The notes below the pieces were generated by a model. That model searched no databases, was not told the origin of the DNA, and was given only the letters and a program-made list of their open reading frames with translations. A stretch of DNA of 28,277 bases, from the IMG/VR virus record IMGVR_UViG_3300045988_062674, positions 1-28,277 of that record; one strand, written 5' to 3'. Position numbers and translations under genes: made by a program. The stretch is from a virus. Shown in pieces: positions 16,268 to 28,277 of the stretch; the first letter of the stretch is position 1; every line of letters starts with the position of its first letter.

Positions 16268-17848
16268 ATGATTCATTTATTCTTTTCTAGAAAAAAAACA
16301 ACATATGCACAAATGAAAGAACGTAATGGAGATGTAATTTTAAAACATTGTGTTAGTGCTAAAGCAGTGTTTGAAAGAAATTCTATTTGGTGCGTAGAAA
16401 TAGAATTCCCAAAAAGTGATTTGATGGGTATGGAAATCAGTGATGAATCCGTGTTTAAAGTGGATATAAATTTTGAAGAACCTCAGTTATATAGAATTGC
16501 GTATCCAAAATACAACAAACAAAGCGATACATATACTTGTTATGCAACACATGTATTCTTTGATTCTCAAAAAGAAGTCTTTGTGTTTGATTATCGTACT
16601 ATGAGTGGTACGTGGCAAGATGCAGTGAATACCGCAAATGATATTATCACAAACTCACGGCCAAATTATCCTTATAAAATTTATGGACATGGGGTATATG
16701 CAAATTATGCGAATGTTAGTGTAGAGGATGAAAAAATCGTTTATTTCCGAAATGTTCAAAATAGTGGGTATTGTTTGGATGTTCCAAGCGCAAGTGAAGA
16801 TGCATCTATACAATTACAGATGTATCAAAGAAACAGAACGTCTGCACAGACTTTCATGTTGAAAAAAGTAGGGTCAAACGAATATGGAGATATATATGGA
16901 ATTTTATCTTTATGTTCATGTAGATGGTTGAAATTGGATTCAGGAAAGGTTGTGCTAGGAAGTCTTTCCGAAAGCCCTTCAGATAATTCTGAGAAATGGT
17001 GGTTCATAAACAATGGATCTAGTTATGATATTGCTCCATATGGAAACGTAGGTTATAGCATTTATCCTAGTTCAACAAGCATTGGAAATGGAAATAAAGT
17101 TATCGTTGCAGATAAAAGTGTAGGAAATGCTTGTAAATGGATGATTGAAGATGTGGATTCTACACAAACGGCATATTGGGTTCGATATAATCTGATTCAA
17201 TGTTTGTTTGGCACAGAAGAAAATTCTATGATGAACAGATGGTCTGAATGTGAGGACAGCCGATTTGTTGCGATGTTCAATAATTATGATTGCTACTTTG
17301 GAAATTCAGATTATTATGCTTCCAATTTGAAGCCAAACGATTTCTTTATAAGTAATAAAGAAATGTCAGAATATACTCAGAAAAAATCAATGGAAAATGT
17401 AGTTACAGGAATCATACCTAAAGCGTACAATGGACGCATTTTACCAAATCACGAGATTATCAAGGCTAGTAATTGGGATACGAATGAAATTCACAGAATT
17501 GATGTGAAAGAATATTCCGATATCAAATTGATTGCGGATGATTCACAAGCAAAGAAAACAACATTGGGCGTATTTACAAATGAAGCAAACTTAAGAAACT
17601 ATCTTAGAATACAGACAAAAAAATCTTTGGAGAAAGAATTGCAAGAACCAAAAACAGAAACTTCTATTAAATTTGAAGAACTATTTTCATCTAATGTGCC
17701 TGATGCACATATGTTAAAGTTAAATGATTCGATTTATGTGGAAACTGAGTTTGGAAAACGAGAAAGGTTTTATTTAAATAAATTAACCTATAACTTGATT
17801 ACGGAACGTCCTGAAGATTTAGATCTTGTATTAGAAAGTGAGGTATAA
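16268..17848 (+). CDS. tail-associated protein Tal (gp27-like N-domain) with inserted ricin-type beta-trefoil-like lectin module
   Basis: 526 aa. The N- and C-terminal parts resemble the prophage tail endopeptidase/Tal N-domain. The central ~140 aa carry three pseudo-repeats ending in AQTFML, EKWWFI and CKWMIE (QxW-like). Confidence 0.8.
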   Translation: MIHLFFSRKKTTYAQMKERNGDVILKHCVSAKAVFERNSIWCVEIEFPKSDLMGMEISDESVFKVDINFEEPQLYRIAYPKYNKQSDTYTCYATHVFFDSQKEVFVFDYRTMSGTWQDAVNTANDIITNSRPNYPYKIYGHGVYANYANVSVEDEKIVYFRNVQNSGYCLDVPSASEDASIQLQMYQRNRTSAQTFMLKKVGSNEYGDIYGILSLCSCRWLKLDSGKVVLGSLSESPSDNSEKWWFINNGSSYDIAPYGNVGYSIYPSSTSIGNGNKVIVADKSVGNACKWMIEDVDSTQTAYWVRYNLIQCLFGTEENSMMNRWSECEDSRFVAMFNNYDCYFGNSDYYASNLKPNDFFISNKEMSEYTQKKSMENVVTGIIPKAYNGRILPNHEIIKASNWDTNEIHRIDVKEYSDIKLIADDSQAKKTTLGVFTNEANLRNYLRIQTKKSLEKELQEPKTETSIKFEELFSSNVPDAHMLKLNDSIYVETEFGKRERFYLNKLTYNLITERPEDLDLVLESEV

Positions 17849-21964: not shown

Positions 21965-22210
21965 ATGTCTTTCGTATTCAAAGACAAAGCTTCTATTCAG
22001 TGGCTTGTCTCGAAAATAAAGTCTGTAACCACATCACATAATGCATTGAATCAAATGGTTATGAATAACCACTTTACCACGAATTTGAACGCAACAAGTG
22101 CTCAAGATTTAGTAGATGAAAAAGGAAATACAATCCTAGCCGATTGGTCTTATGATGTCGCAAGTGGAGAAGTTGGCACGGATTGGACATATAAAGTTAA
22201 GGAGGAATAA
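21965..22210 (+). CDS. small mosaic fibre-module protein (81 aa)
   Basis: The N-terminus (KDKASIQWLVSKIKS) resembles the N-terminus of 21353..21961. The C-terminus (NNHF.T.L....DLVDE..N.ILADWSY.V) resembles the C-terminus of 19799..20707. Confidence 0.55.
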   Translation: MSFVFKDKASIQWLVSKIKSVTTSHNALNQMVMNNHFTTNLNATSAQDLVDEKGNTILADWSYDVASGEVGTDWTYKVKEE

Positions 22211-22211
22211 C

Positions 22212-23096
22212 ATGGCAGGAAAACAAGTAACAGAGTTAGACGCATTACCTAGTTTCACTGATAATAGCTTATTGCCTGTACACAATGGTGCAGGATTAAA
22301 AAAAGGTTTATTATCGCAACTAGCAAATTATTTAGGAACCAAATTCAATAATCCGAATCTATTGATTAATCCGGATTTTAAAATCAATCAAAGAGGTGCT
22401 ACAAGCTACGAACAACAAGGTTATTCAGTAGATAGATGGAAGATTTGGAATGTTACGGTTACACCAAGCACAAGTGGAGGAATCACTGTAAAGAATGACA
22501 AATACACAGATACCGGAACATTTATTCAAATTCTAGAGAATGCAACAGAGGGAGATTCTACATTATCATGCTACGTAACATCAGTAACAGGAACAGTAAC
22601 AATGTTCGCAGATGATAATACGCAAGTTGTATTGAAACAGGGGTTAAATGTAGTGCATAAAAGTAATAGCACAAAGAACTTTTCAATCTTTTTAAATAGG
22701 GGTACTAGCATCACACTTAAATGGGTAAAGTTAGAGCAAGGAAAAGTCGCAACTTCATTTATTGCTCCAAATCCGGCGGAGGAACTAGAAAAATGTCTAA
22801 GATTCAGTAGATACATACCTACCATTTACTGCGTACCATTAAGAAGATATATAGGTGATATAAGCAATGCAAGAGCTTATTATTTACCACTAGGATGTGT
22901 ATTTGAGACTAAATTAAGAGCAAAAGGAACGATTTCTTTAAAAGGAGGCGTGTTTGATAGTACAAGTTTATCTTTAGGAGATATAAAAGAAATCGATTAT
23001 AGCCCAGACGAGATAAAGCAAGTTATCATGCCACAAGAGATGACACCTTGGACACTTATTCTTAAAAAAGTATTTATTGACGCAGAAATTTATTAG
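22212..23096 (+). CDS. receptor-binding tail fibre/RBP candidate
   Basis: ATG 22212 follows AAGGAGG (the track start at 22152 overlaps the previous gene). The N-terminus MAGKQVTELDALPSFTDNSLLPVHNG..KKGLLSQLANYL is a typical fibre anchoring motif. The C-terminus is beta-rich. Confidence 0.7.
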   Translation: MAGKQVTELDALPSFTDNSLLPVHNGAGLKKGLLSQLANYLGTKFNNPNLLINPDFKINQRGATSYEQQGYSVDRWKIWNVTVTPSTSGGITVKNDKYTDTGTFIQILENATEGDSTLSCYVTSVTGTVTMFADDNTQVVLKQGLNVVHKSNSTKNFSIFLNRGTSITLKWVKLEQGKVATSFIAPNPAEELEKCLRFSRYIPTIYCVPLRRYIGDISNARAYYLPLGCVFETKLRAKGTISLKGGVFDSTSLSLGDIKEIDYSPDEIKQVIMPQEMTPWTLILKKVFIDAEIY

Positions 23097-23105
23097 GAGG
23101 AAGCT

Positions 23106-23453
23106 ATGAACGACGAATATAAAGTATACGTATCCTTACAAGATGGATACATCACATCTATTAATTCAGAAATTTTCTTATCAGAAGAAGAAATTCAAAC
23201 AATGGCAGAGATTGATAAGGGACAAGGTGATAAATACGCACACGCACAAAGTCAATATCTAGAAAAAGGATTATTTGATGAACACGGTAGATATAACTAC
23301 AAATATGTAGAAGGTAAAGTGATTGAGGTTGCAGAAGCAGACAAACCAACAATTGAAGAACCAAAAGCAGTACCAACTGAGCAAGAAAAGATTAACGCAC
23401 AATTAATGTTACAAATCGCACAGTTAAAAGCTCAGATGAATGGGGTGAAGTAG
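23106..23453 (+). CDS. XkdW-like protein
   Basis: 115 aa. Lies directly upstream of an XkdX-like gene, with a C-terminal coiled EQEKINAQLMLQIAQLKAQ. Assigned by synteny with PBSX-like modules. Confidence 0.55.
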   Translation: MNDEYKVYVSLQDGYITSINSEIFLSEEEIQTMAEIDKGQGDKYAHAQSQYLEKGLFDEHGRYNYKYVEGKVIEVAEADKPTIEEPKAVPTEQEKINAQLMLQIAQLKAQMNGVK

Positions 23454-23454
23454 T

Positions 23455-23577
23455 ATGAGTTATGAATTAATTAAATCGTATTATGAATTAGGCTTATTTA
23501 CAAAGAGTGATTTAGAAATCTTTGCTTCTATTGGTTGGATTAGTGTAGAACAAATTGATTCTATTATTAATAAATAG
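23455..23577 (+). CDS. XkdX-family small protein (40 aa), not in ORF track
   Basis: Hand translation MSYELIKSYYELGLFTKSDLEIFASIGWISVEQIDSIINK matches the XkdX pattern (Y.L.K.YY..GL.T..D...F...G.IT.EQ). GGGGTGAAG RBS. Confidence 0.75.
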   Translation: MSYELIKSYYELGLFTKSDLEIFASIGWISVEQIDSIINK

Positions 23578-23588
23578 GTGATGTTTCT

Positions 23589-23882
23589 ATGAGTGGTGAA
23601 TATCTTAGTGTTATTATTTCTGCATGCATGCTTGTAATTGCATTTATTACGTATAATCGTGGTACACGCAAGATGGATGGAGAACAAATATCCAATATGG
23701 CATTTTTGAAGAATGAATTGGAACATATCAAATCGGATTTAAGTGATATAAAGAATTCAATTTCAGAAATTAAAAAAGGAAGTAATTTAATGGAAGTGGA
23801 GCTTTCAGAACTAAAACAACAAATAAAAACTTTGTTTAATCGTGTAGAAGCGTTGGAGGAACGTAATAAAAATGGATATTAA
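23589..23882 (+). CDS. BhlA/UviB-like holin-like membrane protein (N-terminal TM + coiled coil)
   Basis: 97 aa. N-terminal TM (LSVIISACMLVIAFITY) followed by a heptad-rich helix. AGGTGA RBS. Lies just upstream of the lysis-associated genes. Confidence 0.6.
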   Translation: MSGEYLSVIISACMLVIAFITYNRGTRKMDGEQISNMAFLKNELEHIKSDLSDIKNSISEIKKGSNLMEVELSELKQQIKTLFNRVEALEERNKNGY

Positions 23883-24105
23883 AGATGCAAACAAGAAACT
23901 TCAGAATGTAGAAGAAAAAGTAGATAACATTTATGGTTTTTGTTCAAAATTAATTGATCGAAACTATAAAACAAGTAGAACGATTATTACAGTATTGGTT
24001 TTAGTGATTATTGTTCTTTATTCTACTATTGTTTGTTGTGGTTATTGGAAAGATGATCATGTGAATAATTGTTCTTGCGAAGCTAATTCAAGCCAACAAA
24101 TTTAA
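23872..24105 (+). CDS. XhlA-like membrane protein (N-terminal coiled coil + C-terminal TM)
   Basis: 77 aa. Helical N-terminus, then TM IITVLVLVIIVLYSTIVCCGYW. Architecture and position resemble PBSX XhlA. Confidence 0.55.
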   Translation: MDIKDANKKLQNVEEKVDNIYGFCSKLIDRNYKTSRTIITVLVLVIIVLYSTIVCCGYWKDDHVNNCSCEANSSQQI

Positions 24106-24113
24106 TTAAGGCG

Positions 24114-24347
24114 GTGGTTTATATTAACAAAGCTAACAGATTAAAAGAGATACGTCCTAAAGATGCATTAATACTTATCAAATCTGTTGGATTAAGAAAA
24201 AAATATGAACAGGTTTTGATTATGAGATACGTATATGACATGTCATGTACCGAAATTGCAGATGCATTATGTGTGGAAGTACAAGCCATAAGGAACAGAG
24301 TATGCAAAGCAAGAAAAATGTTCGATAAATATGTGAGCAATCTATAA
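24114..24347 (+). CDS. mini sigma-70 region-4-like HTH protein (77 aa)
   Basis: LRKKYEQVLIMRYVYDMSCTEIADALCVEVQAIRNRVCKARKMF fits the sigma70 r4/YlxM-type HTH. No region 2 is present. GTG start. Last gene before a strong terminator. Confidence 0.65.
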   Translation: MVYINKANRLKEIRPKDALILIKSVGLRKKYEQVLIMRYVYDMSCTEIADALCVEVQAIRNRVCKARKMFDKYVSNL

Positions 24348-24366
24348 TGATTGCTCATTTTATTTT
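24334..24366 (+). terminator. strong rho-independent terminator ending the structural operon
   Basis: TGAGCAATC-TATAAT-GATTGCTCA (9-bp perfect stem) followed by TTTTATTTT. Confidence 0.8.
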
Positions 24367-24377
24367 GGGTATTTTAT

Positions 24378-24448
24378 GAGTATTATTCGAGTATTAAATT
24401 ATTTGTTGCGTAACCATATAATTAAAGCGTAAAGATAAAGCGTTAAGA
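24378..24448 (+). promoter_or_regulatory. candidate promoter/operator region of the accessory cassette
   Basis: Contains the direct repeat GAGTATTA x2 at 11-nt period (24378-85, 24389-96), a perfect TATAAT (24417-24422), and the tandem 13-mers TAAAGCGTAAAGA/TAAAGCGTTAAGA (24423-24448) abutting the RBS. Confidence 0.4.
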
Positions 24449-24458
24449 GGTGGTTGAA

Positions 24459-24899
24459 ATGTATAACAATTATAATCCAGCACAAGCACGAATTGACAGT
24501 TTGATGCAACAAAGACAAATGATAGATCAACAAATTCAGCAAGTACAACAGTATGCAAATATTCCACCTATCAACATTAATAATCAGATTACACCACAAC
24601 AACAAGGTAATTTTGATTTTAATGGAAAATGGGTGAACGATGAGCAGGAAGCTAGAAACTTTGCGAATGCAAATTTACCAACGATTTTATTTGATAACAA
24701 TAAGTCTATTTTTTATATGAAATCTTTAGATGGAACATTTAAAAAATTTAAATTCGAAGAAATCACGGAAGATGCTTCTAACAGTATAGAAAATCGTGTA
24801 AATGGAATCGAAAAGAAATTAGATGATTTGATATGTGCATTAAGCAAACCACCAAAACAAGCTAATGAGCAACCAAAGAAAGGAGCACAAACAAAATGA
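24459..24899 (+). CDS. hypothetical protein, Q-rich N-terminus + small globular C-domain (146 aa)
   Basis: ATG 24459 lies 5 nt after AAGAGGTGG (the track start is GTG 24450). The Q/N-rich first ~55 aa are followed by GKWVNDEQEARNF...IFYMKSLDGTFKKFKFEE. No named family. Confidence 0.7.
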   Translation: MYNNYNPAQARIDSLMQQRQMIDQQIQQVQQYANIPPININNQITPQQQGNFDFNGKWVNDEQEARNFANANLPTILFDNNKSIFYMKSLDGTFKKFKFEEITEDASNSIENRVNGIEKKLDDLICALSKPPKQANEQPKKGAQTK

Positions 24900-25138
24900 A
24901 TCCTTTAAAAAGTATTATGGGAAATATGAATCCAATGAATATGATGAATATGGGAAATCCCCAACAAATGTTAATGAATATGTTGTCACAGAAAAATCCA
25001 CAAGCATTTCAACAATTTCAAATGCTTATGAACAGTGGTCAAAATCCACAAGCGATTTTAAATCAGATGATGGGTAATTTAAATCCACAACAAAAGCAAC
25101 AACTGCAACAAATGGCAAAACAGTTTGGAATCAGGTAA
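24896..25138 (+). CDS. Q/N/M-rich low-complexity protein with NPQ repeats (80 aa)
   Basis: ATGA overlap with the upstream stop. About four degenerate NPQ(Q/A)..Q(M/L)(L/M) repeats. No TM or signal peptide obvious. Confidence 0.65.
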   Translation: MNPLKSIMGNMNPMNMMNMGNPQQMLMNMLSQKNPQAFQQFQMLMNSGQNPQAILNQMMGNLNPQQKQQLQQMAKQFGIR

Positions 25139-25179
25139 CAACGGATAAACCGTTATTATAGAAAGAAAGGAGAACATAT

Positions 25180-25812
25180 ATGATGGAAAATGGAATGGGA
25201 ATTCAACCAACTTACAACTTAGCTGAAAGAGATGACGGCTTTGGAAACGGCGGAGGTTGGTGGATTTGGATCTTGCTAATCTTCGTATTATTTGGATATG
25301 GAGGATATGGAGGATATGGCAACGGAAACCTAGCAAATGATTCTTTATTAAATGAAGAATTCATTAAACGAGACATTTTTAACACAAACACAAATGTATC
25401 TCAAACAGGTTGCCAAACTCAACGAGACGTACTAGAAAGTCGCTATACTAATCAGTTAGGACTTCAAAACTTGCAAGCTCAGCAACAAGAATGTTGCTGC
25501 AACACTCAACGTGCAATTGACAATGTAAATGCTCAAAGTTTCAAAAACACTTGTGACATTACAACAGCAATTCATTCAGAAGGTGAAGCAACACGTGCGT
25601 TGATCAATGCAAACACTATGCAAGAATTACGTGATCGCTTAGCTGATCGTGATCGTGATTTATTGACGGCTAATTTCCAATTAAGTCAACAGGCACAATC
25701 AGCAAACATCATTAATACTTTGCAACCAACACCAAAACCAGCATACATTACATGTTCACCATATTACGCTTATAACAACGGATGTGGATGTAATGGCTAC
25801 AACAACTTATAA
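25180..25812 (+). CDS. Gly/Tyr-flanked single-TM, Cys-rich, Q-rich protein (210 aa)
   Basis: AAGGAG RBS. GFGNGGGWWIWILLIFVLFGYGGYGGYGNG resembles tiny G-rich TM sporulation peptides (YjcZ-like). Eight Cys, including ECCC and GCGC. Helical Q/N-rich core. Confidence 0.7.
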   Translation: MMENGMGIQPTYNLAERDDGFGNGGGWWIWILLIFVLFGYGGYGGYGNGNLANDSLLNEEFIKRDIFNTNTNVSQTGCQTQRDVLESRYTNQLGLQNLQAQQQECCCNTQRAIDNVNAQSFKNTCDITTAIHSEGEATRALINANTMQELRDRLADRDRDLLTANFQLSQQAQSANIINTLQPTPKPAYITCSPYYAYNNGCGCNGYNNL

Positions 25813-25853
25813 TCTAGCACATATGTGATTAGGCAATTGCCTTTGGATTTAAC

Positions 25854-25881
25854 GGGATAGTCGAAAGGCTATCCCTATTTT
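25854..25881 (+). terminator. internal hairpin GGGATAGTC-GAAA-GGCTATCCC + TATTTT (attenuator/partial terminator)
   Basis: 9-bp stem (one G-U pair) with a GAAA tetraloop. Only ~18 nt separate it from the next ATG, so there is no room for a new promoter downstream of it. Confidence 0.5.
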
Positions 25882-25899
25882 AATAGGAGGATAAAAGAA

Positions 25900-26319
25900 A
25901 TGATTAATAGTATAGCAACGGCAGTACAAACAGTAGCAAACGGACAAAATGTATTATTCCCAACGGATAGAGTAAGAACAAAATCATGCCAATGTGCATG
26001 TAAAGGTTGGCTTGCTCATGATGTAGGAAGTGGATTATTTACATTGACGAAGCAAGGAATTTATGAAGTAGAATATACGGTAGATATTACAAGCGCAACG
26101 GTAGGAGTCGCTTCTTTAGAATTAGAACAGAATGGAGAAGCAGTAGGAGGAACAGAATCTCTATATAATGTAGCTACTGCGAGCGCATACGGAAATGTTA
26201 GTGGAGCTACATTGATTCAAGTACCTTGTGGAGCTTCTTACACAATTACGCTAGGTAATAACAGTGGTTTAGATTTATCTGTTCAGAATGCAAATATCAT
26301 TATTAAGAAGATTGCGTAG
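25900..26319 (+). CDS. stand-alone BclA C-terminal domain-like (C1q/TNF-like jelly-roll) protein (139 aa)
   Basis: FTLTKQGIYEVEYTVDITSATVGVASLELEQNGEAVGGT and the terminal NANIIIKKIA parallel FVISETGFYKITVIANTATASVLGGLTIQVNGVPVPGT and SASIIIEKVA of B. anthracis BclA (compared from memory). No collagen GXX repeats. AGGAGG RBS. Confidence 0.65.
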   Translation: MINSIATAVQTVANGQNVLFPTDRVRTKSCQCACKGWLAHDVGSGLFTLTKQGIYEVEYTVDITSATVGVASLELEQNGEAVGGTESLYNVATASAYGNVSGATLIQVPCGASYTITLGNNSGLDLSVQNANIIIKKIA

Positions 26320-26328
26320 GTGAAAAAT

Positions 26329-26802
26329 ATGCATAAAGCAATGGAAGTTAATGAGAAGATAATGCATGAGTCAGTAAACATGTTAGAGAAATATGGATAT
26401 GCAGAATCTTATTTCCATGCATTATCTCAAGCTTTAGATAATATCAAAGACATTGAAACTATAGAAGCAATGAGAAATAAATATCAAATTGAGATAGGAA
26501 AAGATGGAGTTTCAACTGTTGCAAGATTAAAAGAAGATAATGATGGATATAATATTCATGATCCAGAAACAGAAGATATTGTTTATAAGCTTGCAGAACA
26601 TTTGAAAAAATATAAAGCGTTCAAAGAAGAATATACGCGTACAAAAGGTGATATGGATTTAGAAAAGTCTCATCGTGAATTAGATAAGACTATGAAATGT
26701 ATGCAACAAATCGTAACTATGATTCATGGATGCGTTGATTCAGATGAAGAAAAAACAATGATTAAGACACATATACGAGACATGTTTAATATGTATCAAT
26801 AA
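26329..26802 (+). CDS. hypothetical helical protein (157 aa)
   Basis: ATG 26329 lies 5 nt after AGGTGA (the track start is GTG 26320). K/E/M/H-rich helical composition. No family recognised. Confidence 0.65.
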   Translation: MHKAMEVNEKIMHESVNMLEKYGYAESYFHALSQALDNIKDIETIEAMRNKYQIEIGKDGVSTVARLKEDNDGYNIHDPETEDIVYKLAEHLKKYKAFKEEYTRTKGDMDLEKSHRELDKTMKCMQQIVTMIHGCVDSDEEKTMIKTHIRDMFNMYQ

Positions 26803-26828
26803 GGCCGTTAAATACGGTCTTTTATTTT
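26801..26828 (+). terminator. rho-independent terminator closing the accessory cassette
   Basis: AAGGCCGT-TAAAT-ACGGTCTT stem (one G-U pair) followed by TTATTTT. Confidence 0.6.
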
Positions 26829-26842
26829 GTACAGTGTACAAA
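26824..26842 (+). promoter_or_regulatory. conserved 19-nt element ATTTTGTACAGTGTACAAA, copy 2
   Basis: Identical to 3157-3175. Lies ~40 nt upstream of the holin ATG, immediately after the cassette terminator, with TATTAT/TATTAG -10-like hexamers downstream. Confidence 0.5.
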
Positions 26843-26881
26843 CGATTTAAATATTATTATTAGGATAGGAGGTATTTGTAA

Positions 26882-27103
26882 ATGAAAAAATATAGTAAAG
26901 AATGGTGGATTCAATATGGCTATTATGCAAGTATCAGAGCATTAAAGACAATTGCTCAAACTGCTGTTGGTGTTATTGGAGCATCTGCATTGTTGGAAGC
27001 CGTTGATTGGCGAGTTGTAATTTCGTCAGCGGTTTTGTCAGGCATCGTCTCGTTGCTGACTAGTATTGGCGGATTACCTGAAATTAGTGTACCGGAGGAA
27101 TAA
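26882..27103 (+). CDS. holin (r1t/Phage_holin_1-like)
   Basis: 73 aa with two TM segments. IRALKTIAQTAVGVIGAS...VDWRVVISSAVLSGIVSLLTS matches the ..KTFAQT..G......VDW...L..S pattern. GGAGG RBS. Lies directly upstream of the endolysin. Confidence 0.85.
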   Translation: MKKYSKEWWIQYGYYASIRALKTIAQTAVGVIGASALLEAVDWRVVISSAVLSGIVSLLTSIGGLPEISVPEE

Positions 27104-27105
27104 TA

Positions 27106-27219
27106 ATGAATGATGAAGAAAAAGTAGTAGATTATGAGAATCTATCAGAAGAAGCAAAAGAAGAATTAAGCAATGGCAAGGAAGAAGGTGTAGATGAAGA
27201 ATGTCATATTCCGGATTAG
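27106..27219 (+). CDS. small acidic ORF (37 aa) between holin and endolysin, not in ORF track
   Basis: ATG 27106 lies 6 nt after GGAGGA. MNDEEKVVDYENLSEEAKEELSNGKEEGVDEECHIPD. Overlaps the endolysin start by 19 nt. Confidence 0.4.
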   Translation: MNDEEKVVDYENLSEEAKEELSNGKEEGVDEECHIPD

Positions 27220-28277
27220 CAACATATTGTAACAGAACATCACAACATTATGATGGCCGTTTTGGATATAAGGTTTGTAAAATCACTCCACACTACATGG
27301 CTGCGGCATGGAGTGGTAAACAATGTGCAGATTATTTTGCACGAAATACTCGTCAAGCATCTTCCAATTATTGTATTGGAATTAATGGAGACATTGCATG
27401 CAGTGTTGATGAAGAAAATGCTGCATGGACAAGTTCAAATTGGTTGAATGATTCTCAATCAATTACAATTGAATGTGGAAACATTAATAACGCAACTGGA
27501 GAAATGACGCAAGCTACTTGGGATAGCTTGGTGAATCTATGTGTTGATATTTGTAAACGATATGGATTTAGATTGAACTATACAGGAAATTCTAGCGGAT
27601 CATTGACTATGCACAAAATGTTTGCGGCTACATCATGCCCTGGAGCATGGTTGGAAGCACGTATGCCACAATTGGCTAATGAAGTAAATGCAAAGTTAGA
27701 TGGAAAGGTTGAAACACCAAAACCTACAACTCCAAGTGGAGAAAAATATTCAGTTAATTTACCTATCTGTACAAACACATTGAGTGTGAATTGCTACGGA
27801 ACTTCTACAGTTAAAAAAGGTGATTGGTCAGGTGTCATTGGTAGAGTAATTAAAGGAACAAAATATCCATATCGTATTGATCGTAATGGAGTAGCGATTG
27901 GGTGGACTAATGATGCCGGTATTGATACAGACCCTCATGTGCCAGTTGGCGCCACACAGTCTAGCGCAGAAGCTATCGACCAAATCTTGCACGAAGGCAG
28001 CTATGTTACTTCTGTACATATGAAAATTGGCAATCAAGGATTGAAGAAAATTGGCGATGATTTATGTTGCTATCTATCAAAACTGGGTGGTTGGTTTCCA
28101 ATTCGTATGGTAGACAAAGTACCTAATTCAGATGGATATAATGACAATGTACTGCATACCACAAATGCAGTAGTCTACGTATCTAGAATCAGAGTCGATG
28201 CAGTGAATGTTCAAAAGAACATTGTCAAGATTGGTGGCGTTTGGGTTGATCCAACACCGTTAACAGAAATTGAATAA
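27201..28277 (+). CDS. endolysin: N-acetylmuramoyl-L-alanine amidase (Amidase_2/PGRP-type) with C-terminal cell-wall-binding region
   Basis: 358 aa. The N-terminal ~165 aa carry the Amidase_2-like pattern (...ITPHYMA...NYCIG..G......EN.AW.......NDSQSITIE...H....ATSCPG). The C-terminal half is beta-rich and SH3-like. Confidence 0.9.
   Translation: MSYSGLATYCNRTSQHYDGRFGYKVCKITPHYMAAAWSGKQCADYFARNTRQASSNYCIGINGDIACSVDEENAAWTSSNWLNDSQSITIECGNINNATGEMTQATWDSLVNLCVDICKRYGFRLNYTGNSSGSLTMHKMFAATSCPGAWLEARMPQLANEVNAKLDGKVETPKPTTPSGEKYSVNLPICTNTLSVNCYGTSTVKKGDWSGVIGRVIKGTKYPYRIDRNGVAIGWTNDAGIDTDPHVPVGATQSSAEAIDQILHEGSYVTSVHMKIGNQGLKKIGDDLCCYLSKLGGWFPIRMVDKVPNSDGYNDNVLHTTNAVVYVSRIRVDAVNVQKNIVKIGGVWVDPTPLTEIE

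Follow-up and report, generated by a model that had tools for sequence, protein, structure and literature searches.

A stand-alone BclA_C-like knob and its near-obligate cysteine-rich partner in a mobile cassette of gut and rumen phages

The knob protein and its family

The stretch of viral DNA analysed here (the window; 28,277 nucleotides, positions 1 to 28,277 of IMG/VR record IMGVR_UViG_3300045988_062674) carries a siphovirus late region, in which family searches identify a large terminase, portal, protease, major tail protein, tape measure and Dit, together with tail fibre proteins, a Tal protein that bears a ricin-type lectin domain, a holin of the r1t type and an Amidase_2 endolysin. Between the tail fibres and the holin lies a cassette of co-oriented genes whose core is a pair: the gene for a 210-amino acid (aa) protein with an invariant CCC motif (the CCC protein; 25180-25812, plus strand) and, directly 3' of it, the gene for a 139-aa stand-alone BclA_C-like protein of the C1q/TNF fold, here called the knob (25900-26319, plus strand). 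BclA-type knobs are spore-surface and appendage-tip adhesins of Bacillus and Clostridia, and they also form the tips of phage fibres. The object of interest at this locus is the conserved CCC–knob cassette more than the lone domain, and our tentative reading, held with somewhat less than even confidence, is that the knob is the exchangeable head of a two-protein unit with the CCC protein as its near-obligate partner.

The knob open reading frame (ORF) begins with an ATG, 9 nucleotides (nt) 3' of a putative ribosome-binding site that we read from the sequence (AGGAGG, 25885-25890, plus strand), and it is a real gene under purifying selection. A preliminary description of the locus, made from the letters alone, had assigned it to a phage; the siphovirus genes of the window and proteins 94-99% identical to the knob on IMG/VR viral contigs of 21-40 kb confirm this, and a near-DNA search of GenBank phages with window positions 23000-28277 gave no match. 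The Pfam model BclA_C (PF18573) matches the knob with 41.2 bits against a curated cut-off of 38 (E = 1.8e-10), aligning residues 3-139 with profile positions 5-128 of 128, and a precomputed PF18573 match exists for most knob homologues. The Pfam C1q model (PF00386) gave a partial, sub-threshold match of 14 bits against a cut-off of 23.7 (E = 0.06); of the two profile families suggested earlier, BclA_C was thus recovered and C1q was not, and the likeness to C1q is one of modelled fold only. With the single knob sequence as query, PDB sequences yielded no match (E <= 10), and BclA was reached by profile only: a profile built from 35 homologues places five BclA sequences first (E = 0.02-0.2) and aligns the knob with the BclA globular domain end to end, with ANIIIKK(L/I)A over ASIIIEKVA at the C-terminus and the G(I/F)Y block of the knob opposite BclA ETGFYKITVIAN. 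The parallels to BclA that had been picked out by eye, namely IIIKKIA against IIIEKVA and the G(I/F)Y block, are therefore upheld.

AlphaFold2 models the knob as an all-beta protein of 11 strands, the first beginning at residue 2, with a predicted local distance difference test score (pLDDT) of 92.1 and a predicted template modelling score (pTM) of 0.86. In a Foldseek search of the PDB the best match is the C-terminal domain (CTD) of F-BclA (9h38; E = 1e-8, template modelling score (TM) 0.78), which heads a set comprising 8d02 (BxpB), 7r1m (ExsFA), 3twi and 1wck (BclA), all at probability 1.0 and TM 0.72-0.78; TNF, EDA, C1q and cerebellin families and a few phage fibre knobs follow lower down. 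The PF18573 match and the C1q/TNF-type model concur, and the original identification of a stand-alone domain resembling the BclA C-terminus stands on the Pfam score, the model and its BclA matches; the outcome named beforehand as speaking against it, want of a profile match along with some other fold, did not occur. From the fold we infer that the knob is a homotrimer, and the same fold suggests an adhesive or recognition module.

Since the BclA_C domain spans the whole protein, there is no room for collagen-like GXX repeats or a leader; no such repeats occur in the knob, whose domain starts at residue 3 of 139, and no NCBIfam family matches it at E <= 0.1, so that the exosporium leader model TIGR03720 is not matched either. 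The want of a stalk and of an exosporium leader, both noticed from the sequence beforehand, is thus real. Neither the knob nor the CCC protein carries a signal peptide. The CQCAC motif, which had been singled out as unusual, is present at residues 30-34 in the least confident loop of the model (block pLDDT 74-84), but is not conserved as such: the site varies among homologues between C-x-C, C-C and absence, and it is the family as a whole that is Cys-rich, with mostly 4-7 cysteines.

The CTDs of BclA (PF18573; 1WCK, 3TWI) and F-BclA (9H38) share with the knob their Pfam family, the jelly roll (TM 0.72-0.78) and the C-terminal strand (A)(N/S)IIIxK(V/I/L)A, at a sequence identity of merely 18-23%. 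In these proteins the domain comes with a collagen-like GXX stalk and an N-terminal leader or Cys-rich endospore appendage (ENA) connector, none of which the knob has; BclA belongs to the sporulation regulon, whereas the knob belongs to phages of anaerobic Clostridia and Erysipelotrichia; and the knob, unlike BclA, is Cys-rich and paired with a separate Cys-rich, predicted membrane/helical protein. The knob belongs to the BclA_C family and to PHROG 20016 but, having neither stalk nor leader, is not a BclA-type glycoprotein. ExsFA/BxpB (7R1M, 8D02, 9H3D), the exosporium anchors of BclA, are likewise stand-alone proteins, of about 140-170 aa, with a similar fold (TM 0.71-0.74); their partner is a collagen-like fibre rather than a predicted membrane/helical protein, and no ExsF or BxpB sequence was among the PDB sequence matches at E <= 10, whether the query was the single sequence or the profile. 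The knob fold further serves as a distal binding module at phage fibre tips (the short tail fibre of cyanophage A-1(L), 8KE9; the phi812 central spike, 9EUL; fibres in BFVD), where it is the C-terminal domain of long tail-module proteins, in contrast to the present knob, a separate protein in a movable cassette.

As for its abundance, the knob matches PHROG 20016, a 141-position family without assigned function, over its full length (E = 2.9e-16), and a profile of the knob family run against 1.84 billion cluster representatives retrieved at least 1284 clusters (50% identity) with E <= 1e-3, of which 444 have E <= 1e-10. Of the best 150 profile matches, nearly all are 130-155 aa long with the domain making up the whole protein; BFVD holds many structural twins of 130-145 aa (TM 0.80-0.87) from gut phages named Sipho-, Podo- and Myoviridae, two of them auto-named 'BclA protein' (UniProt A0A8S5S925, A0A8S5SGY1); and IMG/VR contains at least 357 relatives. 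Within this large family the stand-alone form is the usual architecture, and the supposition that it would be a rarity among phages has to be given up in view of the 1284 clusters, the PHROG and the 'BclA protein' entries from gut phages. The knob is a true member of these PHROG and 'BclA protein' entries, for which the sources searched record no partner or context. Our literature searches found PF18573 only in papers on endospore appendages and did not find the phage family, the CCC partner or the cassette; the CCC–knob pairing and the cassette are described here.

The named hosts and bins of knob homologues include Butyrivibrio fibrisolvens (phage Ceridwen), Coprococcus comes, unclassified Clostridia, Vescimonas fastidiosa and a Solobacterium metagenome-assembled genome (MAG), the last being the closest to the window among the named ones; the cassette also occurs in phages of Clostridium perfringens. 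A contig binned as 'Bacteroidales bacterium' (L005, QAMW01000011.1) carries a cassette 50% identical to that of the window and close to the Coprococcus comes one, and its bin assignment is probably an error for a Clostridia phage contig. Plasmid carriage of the knob was considered and rejected: the one weak match, on an 861-kb Vescimonas replicon, proved to be a prophage, and a plasmid search with a CCC query returned no match, even though that Vescimonas prophage does carry a CCC gene. A few cellular relatives (P0301, P0358, P0363) have a very Cys-rich N-terminal region fused to BclA_C in a single chain. P0301 is encoded by a lone chromosomal gene, some 6 kb away from one for a SpoIVB-type peptidase, which makes its genome probably that of a spore-former.

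The CCC partner and a mobile, dispensable cassette

The CCC protein starts with an acidic N-terminal tail that is nearly devoid of Lys and Arg and leads into a hydrophobic core with Gly-rich flanks (WWIWILLIFVLF; GGGWWIWILLIFVLFGYGGYGGYG). The core has a median KD13 of 2.2, and its N-terminal flank holds 0.39 Lys plus Arg against 2.7 Asp plus Glu; to judge from these features, the hydrophobic segment probably inserts in the cytoplasmic membrane. The invariant CCC motif occupies residues 105-107 of the window protein, in a region that is probably largely helical, and the tail bears a conserved P-x-P-A-Y-I-T-C-S-P-Y (in the family P-x-P-(A/S)-Y...C) and ends in GCGC. The median number of cysteines is 10, of which 4-5 lie in the tail. 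The family has 5633 members in a 90% clustered collection, none of them named, and its profile had no match among PDB sequences.

In all of the first eight loci compared (L001-L008) the CCC gene lies directly 5' of the knob gene, its product being 27-97% identical to that of the window. With distant CCC proteins as queries, some 220 more diverse loci were retrieved; of 244 CCC ORFs from phages of the rumen and of the human and lemur gut, 217 have a BclA_C-like ORF downstream. Seven loci seemed empty; in each of the four that were inspected a BclA_C-like ORF overlaps the CCC stop codon, and the same probably holds for all seven. Overall, a knob gene stands directly 3' of the CCC gene in about 95% of some 240 diverse phage loci, often at a spacing of 4-15 nt, and the linkage of the two genes is both tight and ancient. 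The slot 3' of the CCC gene is modular: a different small beta-rich protein with a Cys-rich N-terminus takes it in six loci, some rumen phages included, and the same non-BclA protein is found there in the C. perfringens phages CPD1 and PMQ04.

Since about 95% of its loci have the CCC gene next to it, and the two share a conserved cassette of several genes, the knob is better read as a subunit of a larger unit than as a free protein. The preliminary description had taken it for a free copy, that is, a self-sufficient adhesive C1q-like trimer acting alone. The fold is indeed that of adhesive or recognition trimers and, as described below, the knob gene can move by itself; yet a CCC gene is next to it in nearly every locus, the cassette around both is conserved and no export signal is present, so that we consider a free trimer highly improbable.

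The full order of the cassette is coiled-coil genes, a helix–turn–helix (HTH) gene, a 125-aa peptidase-like gene in some loci, a Q-rich gene, a Met/Asn/Gln-rich gene, the CCC and knob genes, a gene for a helical protein and optional small genes; the cassette is co-oriented and the order is conserved around the CCC–knob pair. Among 13 diverse loci the CCC protein was found in 13, and the Q-rich and helical proteins in 12 each (L081 had no match to the helical protein). The location of the cassette in the genome varies. It lies between tail fibres and holin in the window and in L088. Ceridwen, Dulem virus 33, L007 and the Vescimonas MM35 prophage have it 3' of the endolysin, before an integrase or the junction with bacterial DNA. 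In C. perfringens phages it is found amid small genes that separate the lysis module from the replication module, and in Coprococcus comes (L004) and L005 it lies between a MuF-like gene and scaffold/capsid genes. Four relatives (L142, L147, L170 and L171) have no cassette although they encode homologues, 74-84% identical, of both the endolysin and the tail-associated p115, and in L142 the ORFs run from tail fibre through p115, holin and an XhlA-like protein to the endolysin with the cassette absent. The cassette is mobile and dispensable, and its core is the CCC–knob pair.

These positions bear on two further explanations. The first is lysogenic conversion or exclusion, with the cassette as a prophage-expressed moron whose membrane complex blocks superinfecting phages or otherwise helps the lysogen. 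Its dispensability and mobility are as expected of a moron, as are its place at the extreme prophage end, 3' of the lysis genes and next to bacterial genes (L007, Vescimonas) or an integrase (Dulem virus 33), the terminator-like hairpins that bound the window cassette, its own HTH gene at the start and a partner that looks membrane-inserted by sequence. However, no PADLOC defence model was matched, no convincing sigma-70 promoter was found, the window cassette sits upstream of the holin within the late operon, and C. perfringens phages carry the cassette among early/replication genes, with no integrase in the inspected 12-kb stretches; we therefore deem this role unlikely. The second is an accessory function in lysis, the CCC protein and knob acting together with holin and endolysin on the timing of lysis, the disruption of the membrane or targeting to the cell wall. 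A holin or endolysin gene lies at most 4 kb from the cassette in about 9 of 13 diverse loci, read by eye, and small XhlA-like membrane proteins precede it. Since the end of the late operon is the usual place of accessory genes, this proximity is weak evidence, and the head-module cassettes of L004 and L005, the holin and endolysin of the cassette-less relatives and a possible wall-binding region of the endolysin itself (about 210 aa past Amidase_2) make an accessory lysis role very unlikely.

The knob gene has also been exchanged by itself. In sliding comparisons of nucleotide identity with its own lineage, the window has flanks at 95-100% and a drop to 74-86% only across 25880-26280, whereas against a second lineage the flanks are at about 45-70% and this interval stands out at 91-98%; these opposite shifts show that the knob gene alone was exchanged between two phage lineages. 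A terminator-like hairpin between the CCC and knob genes (GGGATAG-TCGAAAGG-CTATCCC followed by a T-run; 25854-25885, plus strand) coincides with the left recombination boundary. The imported allele (dS about 1.1, omega 0.08) is old but conservatively evolving, and the ratio of nonsynonymous to synonymous substitution rates (dN/dS) is 0.11 for the knob within its lineage, 0.048 for the CCC protein, 0.075 for the helical protein and 0.05-0.15 for the cassette members of the window. Positive selection on the knob was thus rejected (dN/dS 0.08-0.11): its divergence stems from an old allele brought in by recombination.

An exchange of this kind is what one would see in a receptor-binding module, and it raises the explanation that the cassette decorates the virion, as an accessory fibre or knob added to capsid or tail in the cytoplasm that serves sticking to bacterial or gut surfaces or stability outside the anaerobic gut. 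The lack of signal peptides, the co-orientation with late structural genes and the positions between tail fibre and holin (window) or between MuF-like and scaffold/capsid genes (L004, L005) all agree with it, and the same fold tips many phage fibres (8ke9, 9eul; tail-fibre and collagen-repeat proteins in BFVD). Against decoration, the cassette shifts its position relative to the structural modules and is often found 3' of the lysin at the prophage end, the phages behind its stand-alone structural matches are metagenomic and bear the names Sipho-, Podo- and Myoviridae alike, and cassette-less relatives share p115 and endolysin homologues (74-84% identity). A membrane-type hydrophobic segment would be odd in such a protein, and the knob is without an N-terminal adaptor region. 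No virion proteome of the cassette-carrying C. perfringens phages was found in the literature. We regard decoration as rather unlikely.

CCC protein and knob as a possible two-protein unit

Our tentative proposal is that the CCC protein would supply both anchor and stalk, the jobs that leader and collagen repeats do in BclA, and that the knob would form a C1q/TNF-type trimer seated on the Cys-/Pro-rich CCC tail and act as the ligand-binding part of the complex. Cysteines may tie the two together, either through a metal or through disulfide bonds once the complex is exposed to air. As neither protein has a signal peptide, we propose that the complex would be assembled inside the infected or induced cell, as for BclA and ExsF, and become exposed only at lysis; the pair would then be the core of a dispensable, mobile cassette in the phage late region. 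Precedents exist among spore proteins. ExsF is a stand-alone C1q-like trimer whose inter-subunit clefts dock Pro-rich peptides, the ENA tip fibrilla is coupled by Cys-rich 'CC' connectors, and endospore-appendage and spore proteins are assembled without secretion in the mother-cell cytoplasm (PMC12357932), the last of which fits the lack of export signals on knob and CCC protein. By analogy with the Pro-rich peptides bound to ExsF, the P-x-P-A-Y tail of the CCC protein might dock in the clefts of the knob.

Both partners are Cys-rich and their cysteine contents vary together: where the knob is Cys-less (the L138 and L226 types, one or two clades), the CCC tail also has just 0-2 cysteines, and in all other pairs there are at least 2-3 (Spearman 0.66 on raw pairs, 0.35 on 69 representatives). 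Several observations weigh against a knob docked on the CCC tail of a membrane anchor. This co-variation comes from one or two independent clades and is phylogenetically thin. The CCC tail is equally conserved where the slot is filled by the non-BclA protein, so the tail is not tuned to a BclA_C cleft, and three loci have a CCC gene without any slot gene. Alignment by hhalign of the CCC tail with the Cys-rich N-terminal region of the fused cellular relatives revealed no homology (probability 7%). The hydrophobic core is short, at about 12-14 residues, with a KD19 of just 1.54. Finally, the hosts are strict anaerobes, in which disulfide bonds would not form in situ.

The exosporium proteins invoked as precedents also suggest a more literal explanation, in which the cassette is a spore-surface module and its products are exosporium- or coat-like phage proteins laid on the host spore in the mother cell: a BclA/ExsF-like knob, a Cys-rich partner akin to ExsY/CdeC, Q-rich proteins and a small regulator. 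In its favour, every one of the closest structures is an exosporium protein, the Cys-rich and Q-rich partners together with absent export signals fit assembly in the mother-cell cytoplasm, the gene of the chromosomal relative P0301 is some 6 kb away from the SpoIVB-type peptidase gene in what is probably the genome of a spore-former, and C. perfringens phages have the cassette. However, its hosts include Butyrivibrio fibrisolvens, a Solobacterium MAG and Coprococcus comes, none of which, to our knowledge, has been described as a spore-former, and the cassette seems equally frequent in phages of non-sporulating hosts. The exosporium leader model has no match, a regulator of sporulation type was not detected either, the HTH protein being a generic sigma region 4, and a YppG match among the neighbours is weak and below threshold (E = 0.004). 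A module for the host spore is accordingly very unlikely.

An unlikely variant of the two-protein reading keeps the exosporium likeness and dispenses with the spore. The cassette would be a split, phage-borne 'exosporium-like' assembly system, built within the cell with the trimeric, swappable knob on a Cys-rich, membrane-derived scaffold, aided by Q-rich, Met/Gln-rich and helical helpers, that would turn into an air-hardened coat. If so, the cysteines would cross-link only when the lysate meets oxygen, and released particles or membrane fragments would gain an adhesive coat for transmission from host to host. In a more exotic version, the layout, in which a Gly-rich hydrophobic peptide goes with a long helical region while the trimeric head is separate, could be likened to a two-subunit viral attachment/fusion machine.

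Whichever role applies, the five to eight genes of the cassette, none of them annotated, are present in hundreds of gut and rumen phages. The cassette is common. Its carriers are phages and prophages of Clostridia from gut and rumen, among them C. perfringens phages under development for therapy, and two cultured ones are at hand, Butyrivibrio phage Ceridwen and the Vescimonas fastidiosa MM35 prophage. Once worked out, its role, be it adhesion, exclusion, particle hardening or lysis, would assign a function to a sizeable block of phage 'dark matter' and show how the exosporium fold is reused outside sporulation.

Other cassette members and neighbouring genes

Searches of the neighbouring proteins against Pfam, NCBIfam, PHROGs and PADLOC returned no function except sigma region 4, holin and amidase; the matches to YppG (E = 0.004), ATG14, UPF0180 and XhlA were below cut-offs and were disregarded. 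The PADLOC defence models were run on 10 proteins, eight from window positions 23589-26802 and two from L004, with no credible match. Furthest upstream in the window are two small coiled-coil proteins of 97 and 77 aa (23589-24105, plus strand) with putative membrane-spanning segments and an XhlA-like architecture, 5' of the HTH gene. A comparable ORF precedes the HTH gene in L004 (with a weak XhlA match), L007 and L088; these small proteins are uncertain cassette members. A 77-aa HTH protein consisting of sigma-70 region 4 only heads the cassette (24114-24347, plus strand; Pfam Sigma70_r4_2, 34.3 bits against a cut-off of 25.7). Small HTH ORFs take the equivalent position, judged by eye, in L001, L002, L004, L006, L007 and L009, and those of L004, L001 and L002 gave no sigma-70 region-4 match in Pfam.

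A terminator-like hairpin with a T-run follows the HTH gene (24333-24368, plus strand), after which, at 24395-24445 and 5' of the Q-rich gene, a direct repeat (TAAAGCGT...TAAAGCGT) and a TATAAT box mark a region that may be a cassette-specific promoter or operator. The Q-rich protein (24450-24899, plus strand) has a helix at either end, between which lie first a disordered Q/N/P linker and then a small alpha/beta domain. Its ORF was called from a GTG at 24450; the ATG at 24459, 7 nt after AAGAGGTGG, gives 146 aa and is likely the true start, in keeping with the N-termini of homologues (MYNNYNP...). The AlphaFold2 model has a pLDDT of 74, Foldseek found no fold match for it in the PDB (best E 0.18), and the family profile likewise had no match among PDB sequences. 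The Met/Asn/Gln-rich protein (80 aa; 24896-25138, plus strand) has a conserved C-terminal helix, ..QQ(M)A(K/Q)QFGI, and no family match in Pfam or NCBIfam. The hairpin between the CCC and knob genes is missing from rumen-type homologues, in which the two genes are 4-15 nt apart. The start codon of the gene for the helical protein (160 aa; 26320-26802, plus strand) abuts the knob stop codon; the protein has an ALDNIKD motif, and an RG/SY-rich disordered insert is frequent among its homologues. A third terminator-like hairpin with a T-run (26801-26831, plus strand) lies between this gene and the holin gene.

Some members are optional. A 125-aa gene that is not in the window occurs at L001:6074-6451, L002:5325-5705, L006:4115-4495, L007:4245-4664 and L008:3852-4247; its product has no Pfam match, and its pattern NPNP...(G/E)DC...H suggests a papain- or C39-like cysteine peptidase. 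Another member, of 175-199 aa (L004:6444-7037, L005:1400-1999, L089:7322-7849), has a helical pattern reminiscent of ferritin/Dps (..GL.GYK..H..Q..E) and no family match. HNH-like ORFs lie at different points of the cassette in Ceridwen (L001:8518-9312), Dulem virus 33 (L002:6401-6952, minus strand) and CPD1 (L089:5032-5655), and the cassette appears to be a repeated target of homing-endonuclease insertion; the Dulem virus 33 ORF is annotated 'endonuclease', and the other HNH-type homing endonuclease calls were made by eye.

Several metagenomic proteins (P0055, P0074, P0075, P0094, P0318, P0373) join the N-terminal part of another cassette or tail gene, the donor being an HTH, Q-rich, CCC, peptidase-like or fibre gene, to the C-terminal half of a knob, and are either recurrent internal deletions or assembly chimeras. 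Five of them (P0055, P0075, P0094, P0318, P0373) were considered as Rosetta-stone fusions and rejected on account of this appearance. In the Coprococcus comes prophage a 620-aa ORF (L004:8522-10384) starts like a major capsid protein and continues like a tape measure; this fusion suggests a large internal deletion, and the prophage is probably defective.

Of the flanking window genes, the protein at the Tal position just 3' of Dit (16268-17848) matches RicinB_lectin_2 with 26.5 bits against a cut-off of 25.6, and its predicted ricin-type beta-trefoil lectin domain points to a carbohydrate receptor. The two lysis genes lie outside the cassette. They are the r1t-type holin (26882-27103, plus strand) and the Amidase_2 endolysin (27201-28277, plus strand), whose 358 aa contain the Amidase_2 domain at residues 24-148 and about 210 aa beyond it that could be a wall-binding region of its own. 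Endolysin identity among relatives is 57-100%, and in the comparison with the closest lineage (L033) nucleotide identity dips to 84-87% across 27979-28079, in the C-terminal part of the gene, which is a second mosaic hot spot alongside the tail fibre gene at 22152-23096 (35-88% identity).

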